This document shows positions 44,384 to 55,047 of a stretch of 64,000 bases of DNA, piece after piece (within the stretch, counting starts at the first letter, position 1; each line of letters begins with the position of its first letter). The DNA lies in NCBI GenBank assembly GCA_964486045.1, contig CAZALK010000001.1, positions 712,242 to 776,241 on the forward strand. Direction: 5' to 3'. A program made the position numbers and the translations under genes. A model generated the notes under the pieces. The model was not told where the DNA came from and searched no databases. It saw only the letters and a list, made by a program, of their open reading frames with translations. Source of the stretch: an uncultured archaeon (GTDB taxonomy: Archaea > Asgardarchaeota > Lokiarchaeia > Sigyniarchaeales > SOKP01).

Positions 44384-45418
44384 ATGCAAGAGTTAGAAAA
44401 TTATCGATTGACATTGCAAACGAAACTATTTGGTTGAAATTGTAAACTGGATGCGAAAATTTTAGACAGCCTTTTATCTAAAGTAGGTTTAAAAGGAGAT
44501 ATCGAAGATTCTGCTGTAATTCCTGTGCCTAATACCAACCTCGTTATGGTAAAGAACCTTGACATATTCACACCTATCCTAGACGAACCAGAAATAACTG
44601 GAGAGATTGCTGCTGTTAATGTTACTAATGATGTCTTTGCTTTGAATGTTCGCGATATTTCGGGTATGCTCGTATTCCTTGGAATCAAGAAGAACATGCC
44701 AACGTATGTTTCAGAAGGTATACTTCGTGGGATGAAAAATTTCATGGAACACAAAATAAATTCCAAAATCTTAGGGGGTCATACAATATACTCTGAATGG
44801 CCTCTGATAGGTGGAGAAGCTTCAGGATTCGTTGAGAAAAGCAAGATAATACAAAAGAACTATGTTGAATTAGGAGATAAATTAATCCTTACCAAGCCCA
44901 TTGGGAATCAAGCCATTATGGCAGCATATCGTCTACAGAAAAACAACCCCGCCCTTTTAGAAAGTTATTCATCAACCGAAATTGATACTTCAATTGAGAC
45001 CGCAATTAATCTTATGATAACACCGCTTCAAGATGTCGTAAAAACCATATATTCCTACGACGACACATCGTTTATCCATGGAATGACAGACGTGTCTGGA
45101 TTTGGCTTAGCAGGACATTTAAAAGAAATGCTCCAGGATTCACAGCTTTCAGCAGTAATCGAAAAAATCCCAAGTATTAAACTGACACAAGACTTAGCTC
45201 ATGAATTCGGATACAAATATGATGAATGTGAAATGCCTGAGACTGCTGGTGGGATGCTTCTATCTGTAGATCATAAATATGCTAATGAATTCACGGAAAA
45301 ACTAAACAGTGAATACGGAGTGAAAAATTGGATAATAGGGTCGATCGATAACAAAAGCAAACTTAAACATGTTCGCGTTTCCAAAAACGTTGAGCATCTT
45401 GAAATAACTAAAATATAA
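44384..45418 (+). CDS. selD: Selenophosphate synthetase, selenoprotein (UGA=Sec at 44435-44437), 344 aa
   Basis: GAGGTGA SD, then MQELENYRLTLQTKLFG-U-NCKL in frame with EDSAV, LDIFTPI, NDVFA, GGHT, LTKPIG, TDVSGFGLAGH, ETAGG. Confidence 0.93.
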
Positions 45419-45490
45419 CGATGTCGATGAAACAAGCAAAAACGTAGTAATACGAGTGCTTGTTGAGTTTTCCACTGCAATGTGGCATCG
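45419..45490 (+). promoter_or_regulatory. Eukaryote-like SECIS element of selD1
   Basis: ATGA(45427)-AACAAGCA-AAAA-CGTA gtaa TACG-AG-TGCTTGTT-GA(45466), closed by the helix CGATG/CATCG. Confidence 0.88.
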
Positions 45491-46606: not shown

Positions 46607-47665
46607 ATGCCTAGAAAAATAGAATATAGGTTAACAAAGCAAGTGAAAATTTTTGGTTGATCATGTAAATTAGGTGCTAATGAATTACATAAATTGCTAG
46701 AGAAAACTGGTTTGGCTGGAGATATTGAAGATGCTGCCATTATTCCTGTTCCTAATACTGACATTGTTCAAGTGAAGAGTTTAGACATTTTTACCCCTAT
46801 CGTTGATGAGCCTAATATAATGGGGCAAATAGCTGCTTGCAATGTAACGAACGATCTTTTCGCAATGAATGTTCCTGAAATATCGGGGATGCTGGTCTTT
46901 TTAGGAATTAGTACTAATACACCAATGGAGGTTGCTGAGGGAATATTAGAAGGAATCAAATATTTTGTGGAAAAAAAGATCCATTCTAAAGTAGTGGGAG
47001 GCCATACTATTTACTCCGAGTGGCCTTTAATCAAAAAAGTTGTCCTTTTTTGAGGGGAGATCGGAGGAGAGGCTTCTGGATTTGTCCACAAGGATTCTAT
47101 AATTTTGAAACAAGGTGTAAAAAAAGGTGATAAGTTGATATTAACAAAACCAGTCGGTATTCAACCAGTAATGGCTGCATATAGAATGTTAAAAGACTTT
47201 CCTGAAATGTTAGAAGAGTTTTCTAAAAAAGAACTTAATAAATCTATCGATATTGCAATTAAGATAATGACTACGTCAAATCAGAATGTGGTGAAGACTA
47301 TTCACTCTCTTAATGATTTTTCATTTATTCATGCAATGACAGACATTACAGGCTTCGGGCTTGCTGGACACATGCTAGAAATTCTTCAGAACTCGAATTT
47401 ATCAGCAATTATTGAAACAATCCCCTCTATTAAACTCTCTGAAAGTTTATCAAAAGAGATGGGTTATGCTTTTGATGAATGTAAATGTGGAGAGACGGCT
47501 GGGGGTATGCTCATGGCGGTCGATTCTTCAAAAACCGAGGATTTTTCACACACTCTCTCAAGTAATGGAATATTGAATTGGATTGTAGGTACTATTGATA
47601 CAATATCTCCTGGACTTGTGAGAATTTCAAAAAATGTTAAAAATTTAGAAATTTCAAGAATATAA
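46607..47665 (+). CDS. selD: Second selenophosphate synthetase (Sec at 46658-46660), join(46607..47029,47060..47665), 342 aa after intron removal
   Basis: GAGGTGA SD, then MPRKIEYRLTKQVKIFG-U-SCKL. All three ORF pieces are in one frame. A 30-nt insert with TGA splits WPL|IGGEASG. Confidence 0.88.
47030..47059 (+). other. Candidate BHB (tRNA-type) intron in the selD2 mRNA
   Basis: CCTT-TA^A-[TCAAAAAAG ttgtc CTTTTTTGA]-GGGG-AG^A. It has a 4-bp central helix, two 3-nt bulges and a 9-bp intron stem. Excision restores the paralogue sequence. Confidence 0.85.
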
Positions 47666-47734
47666 CTCCAAAAAGAATGAATTTTGTGAAGAAATGTTAG
47701 TCGCAAAATAACTGCCTAGCAAGGGTATTTGGAG
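47666..47734 (+). promoter_or_regulatory. SECIS-like element of selD2 with variant core
   Basis: CTCCAAA...ATGA(47677)-ATTTTGTGA-loop AGAAATGTTAG-TCGCAAAAT-AA...TTTGGAG. The 3' core is AA instead of GA. Confidence 0.65.
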
Positions 47735-47763
47735 AAAATAATTTAACAAATTGAAAAATCTGC

Positions 47764-48258
47764 TTATAAGAATAATTCCATGAAAATTTCATCTTCATAT
47801 TCTCCGTCTATTTTAACTTGCTCTGTAAGCACTCCTTTCTGGATAAATCCCAAATTTTTATAAAATTTTATTGCTCCAGTATTTTTCGCTCGTACATAGA
47901 TAAGTAGCTTTCTATAACCATTCATACGAGCAAATCGAAATGTATTTTCCGATAGATGTCTTCCTTTGGAGATTCTACGCCACTTAGGGAGTACGAAGGT
48001 TCCAATTTGACCAACATGATCAAATGAATCTGTAAATTTTCCCCATAAATCAAGTGATTGGAATGCAATTATTTGCTTTTCTAATTCTGCAATAAATATT
48101 CCCTCCCGATCTGAAAGAGAAGAGATATAATCCCGCTCTTGTTGAACTGTAAAAGGTTGATTAATAGCGGTAAATTTCCTTTCAGCACAAATTACTTCCC
48201 AAATAGAGGATATCGCTTCAGCATCATCAATGGATGCTTTTCTAATAAGAGTTTTCAT
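47764..48258 (-). CDS. GNAT-family N-acetyltransferase
   Basis: IRKA..DDA, FVLPKWR, V.AKNTGAIKFYKNLGF, DEIFMELFL. Confidence 0.88.
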   Translation of the reverse strand: MKTLIRKASIDDAEAISSIWEVICAERKFTAINQPFTVQQERDYISSLSDREGIFIAELEKQIIAFQSLDLWGKFTDSFDHVGQIGTFVLPKWRRISKGRHLSENTFRFARMNGYRKLLIYVRAKNTGAIKFYKNLGFIQKGVLTEQVKIDGEYEDEIFMELFL

Positions 48259-48310
48259 AGAGATCTTCTTTTATAATTAATAAGGGTTATGTTTTACACT
48301 GAATTTGTAA

Positions 48311-49105
48311 TTATTCTTTTTTAATAATTTCACCATTTAGGTCTAATATTATCTCTTTTATTTCATCCAAGGCTTTATCAACCAGTTTTTCTCCATTCTC
48401 CACATTAAAAGCTGTTATAGAAACCTCAACTTCAACGGATAAACCAATTCTTGGATGAGTTTTGATCCAAAGTTGAGGATATTTATTTTCTAACTCACCC
48501 GTATATGGAGCAATCTGACTTTCTCCAATACCTGAAAATAGAAATCCCTTTTCTATAAACTTTCCTTGTTTCTCTTTCAAAATAGGCGTTATCACATTTC
48601 TAAATATTGATTTTAACTCTGTAGGCACTCCCGGTAATATGTAAATATGTATCCCGCCCTCTTCAATTTTAACCCCTGGGGCCGTTCCTATGGTATTGGG
48701 TAGCGGAATAGAGCCTTGGGGAAGATATGCCATTTTTTCTCGTTCTTTTGTCATTCCATCAAGCTTTAAAATATCCCTATCATAAGCGTGTTTATACATT
48801 TTCTTTATAGAGGAAAACGCATGTTTATTTAGTTCCAACTTCCTATTTAAACCCATTGCAATGCCTTCTAAAGTCATGTCATCAAAAGTTGGACCTAATC
48901 CTCCTGATGTTATTACTATATCTGGTTTTCTTTTTAAAACTTCTTGTAGTGCACTAGATATGGTATTCAAGTCATCTCCCACTGTAGTTATTCTTCGAAG
49001 TCGATGACCATATCGAGCAATCCTTTTTGCCATCCAATTTGAATTACTATCTACTGTTTTACCAATCAAAATTTCATTTCCAATGATTAAAAATTCAACT
49101 TCCAT
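48311..49105 (-). CDS. CinA-like molybdopterin-binding-domain protein
   Basis: IIGNEILIG..DSN, VGDD, SGGLGPTFDDMT, GTAPG, LPGVPTE, GESQIAP. Confidence 0.88.
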   Translation of the reverse strand: MEVEFLIIGNEILIGKTVDSNSNWMAKRIARYGHRLRRITTVGDDLNTISSALQEVLKRKPDIVITSGGLGPTFDDMTLEGIAMGLNRKLELNKHAFSSIKKMYKHAYDRDILKLDGMTKEREKMAYLPQGSIPLPNTIGTAPGVKIEEGGIHIYILPGVPTELKSIFRNVITPILKEKQGKFIEKGFLFSGIGESQIAPYTGELENKYPQLWIKTHPRIGLSVEVEVSITAFNVENGEKLVDKALDEIKEIILDLNGEIIKKE

Positions 49106-49232
49106 TGATAAATCAACACATGAGTTTAATTAAAATCATATTATTTTCTAAATAATTTAGTTTTATAAAACTTGATATATATTATTAATTTACATTATTT
49201 CCAACAAATTGAATAAGTAATTTTAAATTCAT

Positions 49233-49790
49233 ATGGCAATTGAAATCGATGATGCAGGAACCGGTGATTTAGTAGGAGATGCTTTTATAGGTTTTTTAAG
49301 AAAAAAATCCGGGGAGTTAATTTTTAAAACTATACCTGTAGATTTATTTAAGGGAGAAAATTGGAAAAACAAGAAGCCATTTTCAGAAACTGTAAATTTA
49401 GTTAAAGAAGGTCTAAACGAGTTAAATTTCCAGAGGGATGCTGAAGTAATCCGTCTGTGCAGAGGGAATATCTTTGATCAAGTTCGAGCTTACTTTTTAG
49501 AAGAAGGTATAAATTATGAAGACGCTATAGTTGAAGGCAAATTACAAGACGCTGTTGAAGGTAAATTAGTTGAACATCTCAGAAATGATTTAGGGGTGAG
49601 ATCAAAGAATTTAACTAAAAAGAGTGGAGCGAAACGATATTTTGTGCTTTTTAATTGGGTTTGTTACAACTTCCCTAAAAGAGAAATGTATGTCAAATCA
49701 GGATTTAAGAAATGGAATACTGTTTGGAGAGATCGAGCAATTGAAAAGTTTGATGAGATAAAAAAATCAAAAAATAATAAGCGCTATTAA
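49233..49790 (+). CDS. Conserved hypothetical protein, probable RNase H-like fold
   Basis: N-terminal IEIDDAGTGDLVG resembles the RNase HII-type first strand. CRGNIFD is also present. Confidence 0.6.
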   Translation: MAIEIDDAGTGDLVGDAFIGFLRKKSGELIFKTIPVDLFKGENWKNKKPFSETVNLVKEGLNELNFQRDAEVIRLCRGNIFDQVRAYFLEEGINYEDAIVEGKLQDAVEGKLVEHLRNDLGVRSKNLTKKSGAKRYFVLFNWVCYNFPKREMYVKSGFKKWNTVWRDRAIEKFDEIKKSKNNKRY

Positions 49791-49874
49791 TTCACTGGAA
49801 ATAATTGAAAAGAATTAGGATAGAAATGTTTAGAATTTCTAATTACAATATAACATTAATAAATTTGAAAACTT

Positions 49875-50549
49875 TTAGTTTAATGTAGTTCCACAACTCT
49901 TACACAATTGAGCATCTTTAGGATTTTTATCATATCCACAGGCAAAGCAAATCAAATTTTTATCATTTTCTGGTTGTTCAAAATCAATTCTTTCTTGTTT
50001 TGGCAAAGAATGTTGTTCTTGAGATGGATTTTTTCCTGGACTAAGGTGCTTTTTAACAAAGTCATCATCATGAGGAGTTATTATTTTAAAATCATTTGAG
50101 GTTTGAATCTCTTTAAATCCATCAGGGATAACCTTCAAATCAGAATTTTTATCTATTTTAGTTTCTTTATCCTCAACTGTTTTCTCTGGGCTTATTTCTT
50201 CTGAAAGCTTAATTTCAGGAAATTGAGACTTAAATTTTTCTTTTTGAATTATTTCTGAAGATTCATTTTTATGAATATCCTCTTCTTGTGTGTAGCCATC
50301 ATTTTCAAACAAAATTTTATCTTTTTGGCCTGCTTTTAAGTTTTTAATGTGTTCAACAATTCCTTTTGTTCTATTAATAAGCATATTCCTAAAGGTCGAA
50401 TCAATTACCTTTGATTTAGAAAATTTAAGTGTAATTTCAGAAATTTCCAACCATAGTTTTATAGCTGAATCAATTTCATTTCTTTTCTCGTAGTTTTTTG
50501 CTAACCCAACCTTAGTTTTCAATTCATTGTTAAATTTTGTTATATCCAT
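49875..50549 (-). CDS. Hypothetical protein: MIT-like helical N-terminus, C-terminal Zn ribbon
   Basis: AKNYEKRNEIDSAIKLW helix, and CFAC..CKSC. Confidence 0.65.
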   Translation of the reverse strand: MDITKFNNELKTKVGLAKNYEKRNEIDSAIKLWLEISEITLKFSKSKVIDSTFRNMLINRTKGIVEHIKNLKAGQKDKILFENDGYTQEEDIHKNESSEIIQKEKFKSQFPEIKLSEEISPEKTVEDKETKIDKNSDLKVIPDGFKEIQTSNDFKIITPHDDDFVKKHLSPGKNPSQEQHSLPKQERIDFEQPENDKNLICFACGYDKNPKDAQLCKSCGTTLN

Positions 50550-50735
50550 TAGTGAATCTATCCCATCTTCTTTAGTTTACAAGTTTAACATGGTAATTCA
50601 AGTTATTAAATATTTATTCGAATTCTAACTTAATATTTAAGCTAAAAATTAAATTTTTATTTCGAATCACTACTAGATATTTAAGGATTATAATTTCTGA
50701 TTAACATAACTTAATTCATAGAAACCACAATAACA

Positions 50736-52625
50736 ATGTCAATTAACCCATTTTCATTGAATGAAATAAAAAATCTTCGAGAAATTGTTGAGAAAAATGG
50801 TTGGAAAATCAATGGATCGATTGAAAATTATTTTCGGTATAGTATCAAAAGGGAGAAAATTCTCATTTTCACTATAAAATTTCCTATAACATTACCAATA
50901 AGGATTAATATACCATTTGAAGTTGTAAATTTCCGTGTTTCAATAGCTTTTCAATTATGGAATTTGAATCAGAATGCTTTCACTATTATACTTTATTTAA
51001 TGAAAGTTCTTCGAACTCTAGCAATTTCTCTAACTCTAGAACATAATTTTCCAATGAAAGGAAAAGAGTCGGTACTCATTGATTTATTAAATCTAATTAT
51101 GCCTGAGCTTATTATAGATGAACATGAGAATACTTGGTTAAATCGCATCAGGATTTCTCTCATGAATAAAAGTGAGCAATTAAAGGATTTATCTGAGCAA
51201 CAACATAGAAATCTAGTGGGATCTTTAATAAATCTTGGATTAGAACCTAGTTTTAGCTTACCTTGGGAATTAAAGAATGGAGTTCCTAAAATTCGAACAT
51301 CAGAAACATTATTTTTTTCAAATGATAAAGATTTTGATGAATTTTTTGTTTTAGAGAAAGGATTTTTTACATATTTCAAAGATCTCGAATATAAGAAATT
51401 TTATATCAGAAGCTCGTTTGACAGCTATTCTCCACATATTCTAGTTGAATTATTTAATGACCATCCTGACTTTAAATTAGAATTATTGGTAGAAAATTGG
51501 ATAAAATTTAGCAGAATAATATCAAATTCAATTATTGATGTAATTGAGAATGGAAAGATTAATCAACGCGAGCTTCTCAATTTCAGACCATCGAAAGAAT
51601 TAGTCTATCGAAGTAACAACTATGTTTTAGATCAAATTAATTTCCCATTTTCACCATTATGTTATGAGAGTTCAATAGCAAAAGAACTATTCCCCTTTCA
51701 TATTGACTTATTCAACAAACCCCCTACCAATTTTGAAGTAATTGAATCTATTAATCATTATACAGAAGCAGAAGAGCTTATTAAAAATTACCGTTTTGAG
51801 GAAGCAACTAAATTATTGAATGATTCACTAAAAATCTTTAACAAGAATCAACAAAAAAAGGTAGTAGTCTCAATTTTGTTAAAATTAAGAAAAATCGCTA
51901 CTCTATTAGACAATGAAGAGCTAGCAGTTAATTACTTACAGAGCGCTCTTAGCATTGCTAAATCTGGGGAAGTGCCAATTGATTATATAATTAAAATTCA
52001 CCAAAAATTAGGAATTAGTTATTTCAAAAATAAAAATTACGATAGAGCGTTGGATCATTTTAAAATAATAAAGAATTTTTTAGAAAAGGAGAAAATATCT
52101 CTTATTAAAGAAAGCTATTTAGGCATGGCCTATCTTTATACAGGATTAATTTATTTAGATCAAAATAAAATTGTTGAATCAAAAGCCAATTTTAAAGAAG
52201 TCCTTGAAATTGGAAAACGGTTCATTAAAGTAAAATTAAAATATTTCTTAACACGTGCTATCTATTTTAAAAATCAAGGAAATCTATCACAAGCCCAAAG
52301 ATTCTTAAAAGCGGGGTTAAATGTTAATGAGATTCGTTTTAATAATAACTCTCACCAAAATGTTTTGATTGATTTTATACTGGAGTTAGCCGAGTTCTAT
52401 ATTCATCATCGAAGAGATTCTAGAAAAGCTCTTTACTTTTTGAATAGTTTAGAGAACCACCTCTCTCCTAATGAAATTAATACTATAAAGAGAGCTATTA
52501 GATGGAATTTGCTGATGAGTGATTATTATAATGGTCTAGAAAAAAATCGTCAAAAATCACAATTCTATGTAAAAGAAAGCCAAAAACTAAAAAGTCAACT
52601 TCACACAATTGGGGTAAATAATTAA
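50736..52625 (+). CDS. Protein with C-terminal TPR repeats
   Basis: LGISYFKNKNYDRALDHF, AYLYTGLIYLDQNKIVESKANF. Confidence 0.75.
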   Translation: MSINPFSLNEIKNLREIVEKNGWKINGSIENYFRYSIKREKILIFTIKFPITLPIRINIPFEVVNFRVSIAFQLWNLNQNAFTIILYLMKVLRTLAISLTLEHNFPMKGKESVLIDLLNLIMPELIIDEHENTWLNRIRISLMNKSEQLKDLSEQQHRNLVGSLINLGLEPSFSLPWELKNGVPKIRTSETLFFSNDKDFDEFFVLEKGFFTYFKDLEYKKFYIRSSFDSYSPHILVELFNDHPDFKLELLVENWIKFSRIISNSIIDVIENGKINQRELLNFRPSKELVYRSNNYVLDQINFPFSPLCYESSIAKELFPFHIDLFNKPPTNFEVIESINHYTEAEELIKNYRFEEATKLLNDSLKIFNKNQQKKVVVSILLKLRKIATLLDNEELAVNYLQSALSIAKSGEVPIDYIIKIHQKLGISYFKNKNYDRALDHFKIIKNFLEKEKISLIKESYLGMAYLYTGLIYLDQNKIVESKANFKEVLEIGKRFIKVKLKYFLTRAIYFKNQGNLSQAQRFLKAGLNVNEIRFNNNSHQNVLIDFILELAEFYIHHRRDSRKALYFLNSLENHLSPNEINTIKRAIRWNLLMSDYYNGLEKNRQKSQFYVKESQKLKSQLHTIGVNN

Positions 52626-52640
52626 AAATTTGAAAGAGTT

Positions 52641-52844
52641 TTACCTTTTAAATCGAGATCTCTTTGCTCCAAGACTGTCCTGTTGACCACCAAATCGTTC
52701 ATTAATAAATCGAGCTTTATACAACTCTCTGAATCGTATTCTTGGAGGCTTTTTCTTACGAGAATTTACACCACTTCTTGCAATTCGTGGAGTTTGTTGT
52801 TTAACTTTTCCTGCTTTAGTTAACGAACCATGAGAACCAGGCAT
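52641..52844 (-). CDS. rps30e: Ribosomal protein S30e (eS30)
   Basis: SHGSLTKAGKVKQQTP signature. Confidence 0.93.
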   Translation of the reverse strand: MPGSHGSLTKAGKVKQQTPRIARSGVNSRKKKPPRIRFRELYKARFINERFGGQQDSLGAKRSRFKR

Positions 52845-53008
52845 TTTTTTCTTATCAACTCAATATTATATTTATACTAAGAATATTAAATAATTTCAAA
52901 TTCTTAAATTTTGGCATCTAAAACTTTCCTTAAAGATTGGACCCCATTTTTTTATTAAGTTTATTCATAATTTCTTTAATTAAATTTAATCTTACCCTAT
53001 TTTCTATT

Positions 53009-53158
53009 ATGTCTGATAAAGGATTTGATAAAAAAAAAGTTGAAAAAGACGAGGAAAAAATATTATATAGCACTAGCAAGATAATCTGCTTTGCGTGCGG
53101 AGAACAAATTAAAAAAAAAACAAAAGTCTGTCCTTATTGTAAAACAGCTATATCGTAA
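53009..53158 (+). CDS. Small zinc-ribbon protein
   Basis: MSDKG...ICFACGE...VCPYCK. ATG 53009 is preferred. Confidence 0.65.
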   Translation: MSDKGFDKKKVEKDEEKILYSTSKIICFACGEQIKKKTKVCPYCKTAIS

Positions 53159-53235
53159 TAATTTCATTCATATATCTTAAACTTAAAGAAATATTATAAT
53201 TTATACAGAATAAATTATTCAAAAAATGCAATTAT

Positions 53236-53733
53236 ATGATTTCTAGTAATCGAAGCTCACAGAAAAAAAGCTTGTTGCGTGTATGGGTTTATTTGTTTAT
53301 ATTAATCACATCCTTATCTTTTATTTTATCTCTGATAGTAAATCCCTTCTGGTGGATCTTACTTCCTTTGTCATTTTTCTTATTTATCATAATCCAACTC
53401 ATGTCTCGGTATTTTTGGTTAGAGGAAAAAATTTGCCCTCGCTGTAATAATCCTGTAGGTAAATATAGTGAATTCTGTAGAAATTGTGGATTCAAACTTT
53501 TTTACAGGTGTATATCATGTGGAAAATATATGCGAGCTGATGCTCAATTTTGCGATAATTGCAACATTAAGCTTGAACACACCGAGGAAGAGAAAAAGAC
53601 AATTGAATATCCCATAGTAGAAAAAGGTTCTCCACCTCCTGAAATGCCTAATTTTTGCGAAACTTGCGGTACTGAAGTAAAACACACAGGCGTTATTAGA
53701 TTTTGTGAAGAATGTGGAGCAAAACTAAAATAA
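53236..53733 (+). CDS. Membrane protein with multiple zinc ribbons
   Basis: Two TMs followed by six CxxC motifs. Confidence 0.8.
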   Translation: MISSNRSSQKKSLLRVWVYLFILITSLSFILSLIVNPFWWILLPLSFFLFIIIQLMSRYFWLEEKICPRCNNPVGKYSEFCRNCGFKLFYRCISCGKYMRADAQFCDNCNIKLEHTEEEKKTIEYPIVEKGSPPPEMPNFCETCGTEVKHTGVIRFCEECGAKLK

Positions 53734-53907
53734 AATTTTAAAGGATTATCCCCTCTTCGAATCTTTAATAGCAGAGATTTTTAAACGTTAAAGCTAAAAA
53801 TTGTGAGTTTAAGCAAAATTTCTAAATAGTTCTTCATAATTTATATTTTCTCAAACCAATCAATAAAACCTTAAAGAATAGAAATTTTTTTATCTTAAAC
53901 AAGAAAA

Positions 53908-54543
53908 ATGGTGAGAAGATCAATTTCAGAAAAGAGAAAGGAAATTTTTAACAAAAGTGAAGGTCGACGAAAATCAATTTACCTTTCTAAACCAAGAGTT
54001 CCCCCCTTAGAAGAATCAAAGTGGGATGATGATGCTCGAAATTTGATAGAAGGGTGGCGAAAATTGAATAATAGAAAAGAAGTAATAAACATTTTGGCCA
54101 CAATGGCGAATTATTCGAAGTTATATAATCGATGGCGTGTTTTCGGGAATCATGTTTTGTATAAGTCCTCACTTCCTATTAGAGAAAAAGAAATCCTTAT
54201 TCTCCGTACAGGATGGCTCTGTAATTCGAAGTATGAATGGGGACAACATAGCCTTATAGGAAAACGTTTTGGCCTAAGCGAGGAGGAGATATTACGGATT
54301 AAGGAAGGTCCAAATGCTAAAGGTTGGAGCGATTTCGAATCTATATTGCTACGCGCGGCGGATGAATTATATGTTGACTCATTTATAAGCGATTCTACAT
54401 GGGAAGAGCTTGCTAAAACTTATAATACTCAACAATTGTTAGATGTAGTTTTTACTGTTGGACAATACAATTTAACAGCAATGGTCCTAAACTCTCTCGG
54501 CATTCAACTTGAAAAAGGTATGGAAGATTTTCCAGAATTTTAA
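53908..54543 (+). CDS. Carboxymuconolactone decarboxylase/AhpD-like protein
   Basis: LP.REKEILILRTG..C.S.YEWGQH, AADEL, VGQY. Confidence 0.85.
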   Translation: MVRRSISEKRKEIFNKSEGRRKSIYLSKPRVPPLEESKWDDDARNLIEGWRKLNNRKEVINILATMANYSKLYNRWRVFGNHVLYKSSLPIREKEILILRTGWLCNSKYEWGQHSLIGKRFGLSEEEILRIKEGPNAKGWSDFESILLRAADELYVDSFISDSTWEELAKTYNTQQLLDVVFTVGQYNLTAMVLNSLGIQLEKGMEDFPEF

Positions 54544-54760
54544 ATATGGATCTTACTTTGCTGATTTTAAAATTAATGGTAAGGATAAAAAAATTCGCCA
54601 ACATATAGAGTATTTGGAATATTTAGCTCGTTCCTATGGATTTAGATTAGAAGAGTACAAAAGAAGGAAAGGTTTTTTATTGAGATTTTTTGGTGATACA
54701 CAAGAGATTATTGATGAATTTGTATCGCTGTGTTGCAATACTGATTATATTGTCTGGTAA
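54509..54760 (+). CDS. Small hypothetical protein (start uncertain)
   Basis: Protein-like open frame overlapping the end of the upstream gene. Confidence 0.45.
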   Translation: MKKVWKIFQNFKYGSYFADFKINGKDKKIRQHIEYLEYLARSYGFRLEEYKRRKGFLLRFFGDTQEIIDEFVSLCCNTDYIVW

Positions 54761-54882
54761 TAGGGTATATTTTTCTATGTTCTAGATATATAATTTATGT
54801 TAGATTAATATATTTTACAGATCTACTAATTATTTTAAGCATGAAAGTATTTATTCTTGGAATAATTTTATTACTTACCTAA

Positions 54883-55047
54883 GGGGACTTGGTGTAGTTT
54901 TCTAAGCAAATCGCTTAGTAAACATAACCCGGTGGCACAGCAGGCTCCAGATCCTACAAGCAAAAGCTGTTCCGTGGACACCTGTCGGTCGGGGGTTCAA
55001 TGTGGGATGCTAAAATCGCATTCTACGGATACATCCCTCAGTCCCCA
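54883..55047 (+). tRNA. trnW: tRNA-Trp(CCA) with three introns (54898-54927, 54951-54979, 55001-55032)
   Basis: The spliced 74-mer GGGGACT TG GTGT AGCCCGGTG GCAC A GCAGG CTCCAGA CCTGT CGGTC GGGGG TTCAAAT CCCTC AGTCCCC A folds as a full cloverleaf. Each insert has BHB/BHL geometry. CCA is not encoded. Confidence 0.92.

Follow-up and report, generated by a model that had tools for sequence, protein, structure and literature searches.

The stretch analyzed here (the window; 64,000 nt of contig CAZALK010000001.1, assembly GCA_964486045.1, positions 712,242 to 776,241 of the forward strand) comes from an uncultured archaeon of the Lokiarchaeia and contains two genes, a selD paralog and a tRNA-Trp gene, whose short inserts are very probably introns of the bulge-helix-bulge (BHB) class. 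The initial annotation had described four inserts of 29–32 nt, three in the tRNA and one in an mRNA, and all four are present, on the + strand. The selenophosphate synthetase gene selD2 (46607–47665, +) is predicted to consist of two exons encoding 342 amino acids once spliced, which match positions 27–145 and then 146–345 of the PRK14105 model. Its 30-nt insert (47030–47059, +) introduces 10 extra codons, including an in-frame TGA (47051–47053), into the invariant WPLIGG motif. The intronless paralog selD1 (44384–45418, +) provided an internal control for the spliced selD2 junction. Both selD paralogs of the window possess a selenocysteine (Sec) UGA near the start, which in selD2 is codon 18 (46658–46660).

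The selD2 insert has a 1+9+5+9+4+2 geometry. The exon strand of the 4-bp central helix (47024–47027, +) pairs with 47054–47057 to give CCTT/GGGG, bordered by the bulges TA|A and AG|A, a 9-bp intron helix with a 5-nt loop, and a 3-bp exon helix. Cuts after the second base of both bulges yield exactly WPL|IGGEASG, as found in selD1 and in intronless orthologs. The minimum-energy fold contains the same BHB core, and the BHB score is 11.8; scores of 11 or more occur at 5e-5 of random coding positions (L = 30). The hairpin energy by itself is unexceptional (P = 0.06 versus shuffles); the case is made by the coincidence of the BHB geometry with the ORF-restoring cut. Purifying selection acts on both exons (dN/dS about 0.03–0.12 versus three relatives). 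Throughout, the relatives compared are Promethearchaeia (Lokiarchaeia) metagenome-assembled genomes, among them Loki_b32. In one of them (G014, locus L018), the sole carrier among the congeneric orthologs examined, selD contains a homologous, stop-free insert at the same site, which differs from that of selD2 by one compensatory change (A-U to G-C) and two compatible base changes. The insert was absent from 80 further selD loci, one of which is truncated at the site.

The tRNA-Trp(CCA) gene (54883–55047, +) is interrupted by three introns, and removal of all three gives a mature tRNA of 74 nt with an ARAGORN score of 119; the unspliced gene was missed by ARAGORN and Rfam. Intron 1 (54898–54927, +; 30 nt) forms a BHB at position 15/16 and is present in 11 of 29 related loci. 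Intron 2 (54951–54979, +; 29 nt) lies in the anticodon loop at 37/38 with a relaxed BHB and occurs in all 29. Its borders have a one-base ambiguity, the helix register preferring the equivalent 54952–54980, and its intron stem is weak. Intron 3 (55001–55032, +; 32 nt) forms a canonical BHB in the T-loop, where 21 of the 29 loci have introns. Relatives without intron 1 or 3 show precisely the predicted junctions. The non-canonical introns of this tRNA are as patchy in distribution as the mRNA introns described below, and the anticodon intron is fixed.

The initial annotation had further proposed a hidden set of BHB-interrupted protein genes, and such a set was found. In this genome (G000), all searches combined identified at least 20 BHB inserts, distributed over 18 protein genes; this minimum covers genes with a homolog in the comparison sample. 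The carriers are rpoA1, EF-2, uS10, selD, cdhA (two inserts), fwdA, a GH57 enzyme, AMP phosphorylase, MoxR, thiolase, AIR-synthase-like, zinc-finger and dodecin-like genes, three Rab-like GTPases, and two histones (one with two inserts). The sole rpoA1 copy of the genome is interrupted between GHFGH and IELARP by a BHB insert of 30 nt that includes a TAA in frame, EF-2 is interrupted in its P-loop, and uS10 (L358, G000:C9:148817-148847) has a 31-nt frameshifting insert with a relaxed motif and, by inspection, a 4-nt 5' bulge. As anticipated, public gene calls split such genes: a public protein collection includes a truncated rpoA1 product of 88 aa, which belongs to a cluster of 106 members (71–112 aa among those listed).

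Several further loci were observed alongside this set. The uS10 gene of G084 holds a different insert. The doubly interrupted histone gene has its 30-nt BHB inserts at G000:C6:146615-146644 and 146775-146804, and the second histone has one at G000:C12:112768-112797. The cdhA matches of G005, G027, G031, G089, G094, G076, and G084 extend over longer spans and include one internal stop, which suggests further single or double introns.

A census that made no use of the motif compared protein with DNA in both directions against a 1.56-Mb sample (47%) of the relative G006. In about 1.0 Mb of aligned coding sequence, it detected 8 clean stop-containing inserts of 30–32 nt in this genome and 4, in other genes, in G006. 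All of them form BHBs, the zinc-finger one in a register tied for best by homology, and the remaining clean indels have low BHB scores (a score of 9 or more is reached at 6e-4 of random coding positions). The genome-wide BHB scan restricted to homology-restoring sites, which had been suggested at the outset, required a homolog aligning gap-free across the junction and drew on about 6000 candidates per decoy geometry. The true geometry returned 17 coding sites, versus 0, 2, and 1 for three decoy geometries, and the single match of the third decoy is a shifted copy of a true site. When protein homology alone was used to rank 780 border choices, the BHB cut was best or tied for best at 12 of 15 sites and uniquely best at 5. 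A BHB scan without homology had no power, as it gave about 80,000 loose matches for true and decoy geometry alike and 36 versus 36 after an open reading frame (ORF) filter; this motif-only scan did bring up the broken rpoA1.

The inserts share a narrow set of properties. Two 3-nt bulges on opposite strands surround a 4-bp helix, together with a flanking intron helix, and the motif is relaxed at uS10 and at the anticodon intron. Among the 24 distinct mRNA sites, 20 have 30 nt in the 1+9+5+9+4+2 layout, and the first base of the 3' bulge, a feature outside the score, is A at 23. No end sequence or target duplication is common to the inserts, and intron comparison bore out the earlier description of a shared geometry with no obvious shared sequence. 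The introns are flanked by residues that are better conserved than average (22.8 versus 20.6 of 26 residues, P = 0.002). An in-frame stop is present in each of the 20 introns of 30 nt, against a prediction of 12.6 from structure-preserving shuffles; when only the 15 sites detected without a stop requirement are counted, the product of the per-site stop probabilities is about 9e-4. At EF-2 codon 70, the stop occupies intron codon 3 in 22 of 22 sequences, even where the partner base mispairs. From these sequences, the in-frame stops appear to be selected for. The suggestion that stop-free introns of 3n length would go unseen is weakly supported, by one case, the selD insert of G014, and a large class of this kind is not supported: none of the 17 homology-verified sites is stop-free, and stops are over-represented.

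The BHB structure is kept by compensatory change in rpoA1, EF-2, and selD (the last in two sequences). In the rpoA1 codon-79 introns, 94% of cells are paired and 9 of 13 pairs show double-sided changes; none of 500 shuffles reached this pairing, and slid controls gave 31–44%. Similarly, 273 of 286 cells are paired in the EF-2 codon-70 introns.

Across the family, rpoA1 inserts occur in 17 of 128 genomes (at codons 42, 79, and 80) and EF-2 inserts in 26 of 128 (at codons 37, 39, 41, 68, and 70). The EF-2 codon-70 intron is present in 10 of the 23 metagenome records matching the site. One sequence with this intron, L322 (LAZR01001632.1), is presumably from the Loki's Castle sediment metagenome. 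In the other families of the class, no rpoA1 or EF-2 inserts were found in 22–24 genomes, two genes that do not by themselves establish absence; long insertions in EF-2 and rpoA1 of those families were examined and rejected as ordinary protein indels without a BHB. In trees of exon DNA, intron presence has no phylogenetic signal: rpoA1 requires 11 changes for 11 carriers, and EF-2 requires 15 versus 14.9 after shuffling (the EF-2 tree leaves out six truncated loci). The tree sample was enriched for carriers, so these counts show scatter rather than rates. Because presence is scattered across the tree, intron gain or loss is probably fast.

Some relatives show more elaborate arrangements. The rpoA1 gene of G025 (L108) has introns of 30 and 35 nt with just 4 nt of exon between them, and the second helix is fully paired only once the first intron is out, which suggests ordered splicing. 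The 85-nt inserts at rpoA1 codon 80 of G026 and G022 (L109 and L111) have three hairpins in one BHB frame and are possibly introns nested in an intron, with ambiguous inner BHBs. The EF-2 introns at codon 68 (L261, L265) and codon 70 (L245–L264) are alike at 18 of 23 nt, the only related pair, and short-range relocation is possible.

The genome encodes two EndA paralogs and an intact RtcB. EndA alpha has its best alignment with the Aeropyrum pernix EndA alpha subunit, and this alignment takes in both the catalytic His and the G-x-PLG-x-x-KPR loop, which is linked to a broad substrate range. The second paralog is without the catalytic His, as expected for a structural subunit. Judged by gene presence and motifs, the genome would be equipped for non-canonical EndA substrates and RtcB ligation. 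Two reverse transcriptase genes are also present in the genome.

Single-copy essential genes require the removal of their inserts. Because the sole rpoA1, the EF-2 P-loop, and uS10 (by its 31-nt frameshift) are broken, the inserts are read as BHB-class introns that are, in mRNAs as well as tRNAs, very probably removed at the RNA level. It is likely, with somewhat less confidence, that EndA/RtcB-spliced mRNA introns are spread genome-wide in this family, numbering tens per genome, lying in essential genes, turning over fast at fixed hot spots, occurring in tandem or nested, and having stops under selection. Sequence and covariation show that the pre-mRNA folds into a 9-bp intron hairpin and a 4-bp exon-intron helix between two 3-nt bulges. 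The tRNA splicing endonuclease, probably an (alpha-beta)2 EndA with a Crenarchaea-type alpha specificity loop, would cut after the second base of each bulge; RtcB would ligate the exons, and the intact protein would be translated. The in-frame stop may act as a fail-safe, so that translation of an unspliced mRNA would end early in a short peptide and would not produce a full-length protein carrying 10 additional residues in its active site. The introns lie in conserved motifs, where nothing but exact removal is tolerated, and probably turn over at the same sites by precise loss, allele exchange, or both.

Several points weigh against this account. The exon-exon helix is often absent or only 1–3 bp long, and the motif is relaxed in places, such as uS10 and the anticodon intron. 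An indirect search for spliced RNA among metagenome contigs across the EF-2 junction, 10 intron-bearing and 13 intronless records, turned up no identical pair indicative of a cDNA. Taken alone, selD does not logically force splicing, because the genome has a second selD, the mRNA encodes a selenoprotein and UGA is the sole stop in its insert, and the G014 insert contains no stop.

These last features point to stop read-through, by Sec insertion or suppression, with a tolerated 10-residue insertion. For selD, where a selenoprotein gene with a sole UGA in its insert is accompanied by a hairpin resembling a Sec insertion sequence (SECIS) and the G014 insert has no stop, this is at most plausible; for the set it is highly unlikely. 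The other sites have TAA or TAG, often multiple, or shift the frame (frame-shifting insert lengths elsewhere are 31, 32, 40, 50, 65, and 85 nt), and the amino acids encoded by the selD insert vary freely between G000 and G014 while the base pairs are kept.

It is just as improbable that the inserts are DNA-level elements that programmed excision or phase variation removes from the chromosome in some members of the population. The scattered presence, the differences between near-identical sister genomes, and the absence of phylogenetic signal would all fit such elements. However, up to 20 inserts stand together in assemblies, essential genes included, and they have neither a shared end sequence nor a target duplication; the G-U pairs and the strand-specific EndA geometry are features of RNA.

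Programmed ribosomal bypassing of the type known from T4 gene 60 and yeast mitochondrial byps, in which the ribosome hops a hairpin containing a stop and the RNA stays uncut, has still less to recommend it. Byps resemble the inserts in size (about 30 nt), hairpin, and in-frame stop, and selD has matching take-off and landing codons (ATC...ATC). Such codons are matched, however, at only 1 of 15 sites of this genome, and 13 of the 24 distinct sites split a codon. Bypassing also gives no role to the 4-bp exon-intron helix with 2-nt offsets, or to the same geometry in tRNA genes. Pseudogenes or assembly artefacts, a thought raised by the metagenomic origin of all the genomes and by 7.8% contamination in this one, are refuted for the system, since the same sites recur in dozens of independent assemblies with diverged and covarying sequences, rpoA1 is single-copy, and the selD exons are under purifying selection, and could still fit only one or two single sites.

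As to where the introns came from, the proposed spread from tRNA into mRNA is not supported by comparison: no mRNA intron is recognizable as a copy of any of 44 tRNA introns (a partial tRNA set), the best match being 15 of 23 nt. The aggregate mRNA-tRNA similarity is slightly raised (13.2 versus 12.7 matches, P = 0.02), a small excess for which a loop preference common to both kinds is the best explanation. For selD and EF-2 codon 70, inspection by eye suggested that the intron arose as a local copy of the flanking exon, but this origin is not general (P = 0.14).

A bearing on the ancestry of HAC1/XBP1 splicing had also been proposed and is not supported. In that pathway, a short mRNA intron is removed by protein catalysis outside the spliceosome; IRE1, whose RNase is unrelated to EndA, cuts CNG-type stem-loops, and a tRNA ligase (RtcB in animals) closes the exons. 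HAC1/XBP1 presents two stem-loops in one regulated target, whereas the splice sites here are BHBs; the two pathways can be compared in their ligation step alone. The introns turned up in a single family, the nuclease and the motif are both different, and what is left is analogy. A search for the IRE1 RNase domain PF06479 gave no match, and its positive control also failed.

The closest known case is the BHB intron of cbf5 pre-mRNA in Desulfurococcales and Sulfolobales, whose splicing was confirmed by cDNA (Watanabe 2002; Yokobori 2009, PMC2738675). Until 2020, a BHB intron within an archaeal coding sequence was cited as confirmed for cbf5 alone (PMC7714728); unconfirmed intron predictions in other archaeal protein genes are mentioned by Yokobori 2009 (PMC2738675). 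The resemblance covers a short coding intron (16–44 nt in cbf5) with a BHB or BHB-like motif at a catalytic motif, a hetero-oligomeric EndA, and its being missed by annotation. Unlike cbf5, with one gene, one site, one old gain, and few losses, the present genome has at least 20 sites in unrelated genes, and the system includes several introns per gene, tandem and nested arrangements, a length distribution sharply peaked at 30 nt, in-frame stops, and a presence that does not follow phylogeny. The 5' UTR (untranslated region) BHB intron of Haloferax HVO_1309 (PMC7714728) is likewise in an mRNA substrate of EndA; unlike the introns here, it is a single case that leaves the reading frame uninterrupted.

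The richness of Asgard tRNA introns has been published (PMC11291895; bioRxiv 10.64898/2026.10.13.758758), and the tRNA-Trp of the window is an ordinary example of the non-canonical kind. The mRNA introns share with Asgard and Thermoproteales tRNA introns the BHB geometry, repeated gains, multi-intron genes, two EndA paralogs, and the lack of a general arrival route. Unlike the transposed tRNA introns of Thermoproteales, no near-identical introns occur at different loci here (44 tRNA introns, partial set). Published Asgard intron studies cover tRNA genes, and the passages searched contain no mRNA cases; bioRxiv 10.64898/2026.10.13.758758 focuses on the classes Jordiarchaeia and Atabeyarchaeia and does not use the word "mRNA". 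The searchable literature, which leaves subscription journals outside its coverage, was queried for introns in Asgard mRNAs and in archaeal mRNAs at large and contained no report of such a set. The chemistry is thus of a known kind, and its scale, targets, and dynamics appear unreported in that literature.

If the inserts are spliced, relatives of eukaryotes would routinely splice the mRNAs of core genes. In a considerable fraction of Lokiarchaeia genomes, gene callers would be truncating both the markers of Asgard phylogenomics (rpoA1, EF-2, uS10) and genes counted as eukaryotic signatures (Rab-like GTPases, histones). Close genomes that differ by exact presence or absence at a site make intron gain and loss, a long-standing question, testable in a simple system. 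Intron proliferation as known from eukaryotes would then have a counterpart in prokaryotes that works without a spliceosome and extends to the scarcity of stop-free 3n introns; the ancestry of any eukaryotic splicing pathway is not thereby shown.

Other features of the window include a CinA-like gene (48311–49105, −), which is intronless here and whose G006 ortholog has its SGGL|GPT motif interrupted by a BHB insert of 30 nt. A small basic ORF at 52641–52844 (−), adjoining the region, presumably resembles ribosomal protein eS30. A putative SECIS-like hairpin (AUGA...) lies 3' of selD2 (47677–47712, +), with AA in place of the 3' GA of the relative G013, and selD1 is also trailed by a SECIS-like element, a different one, at about 45420–45470.

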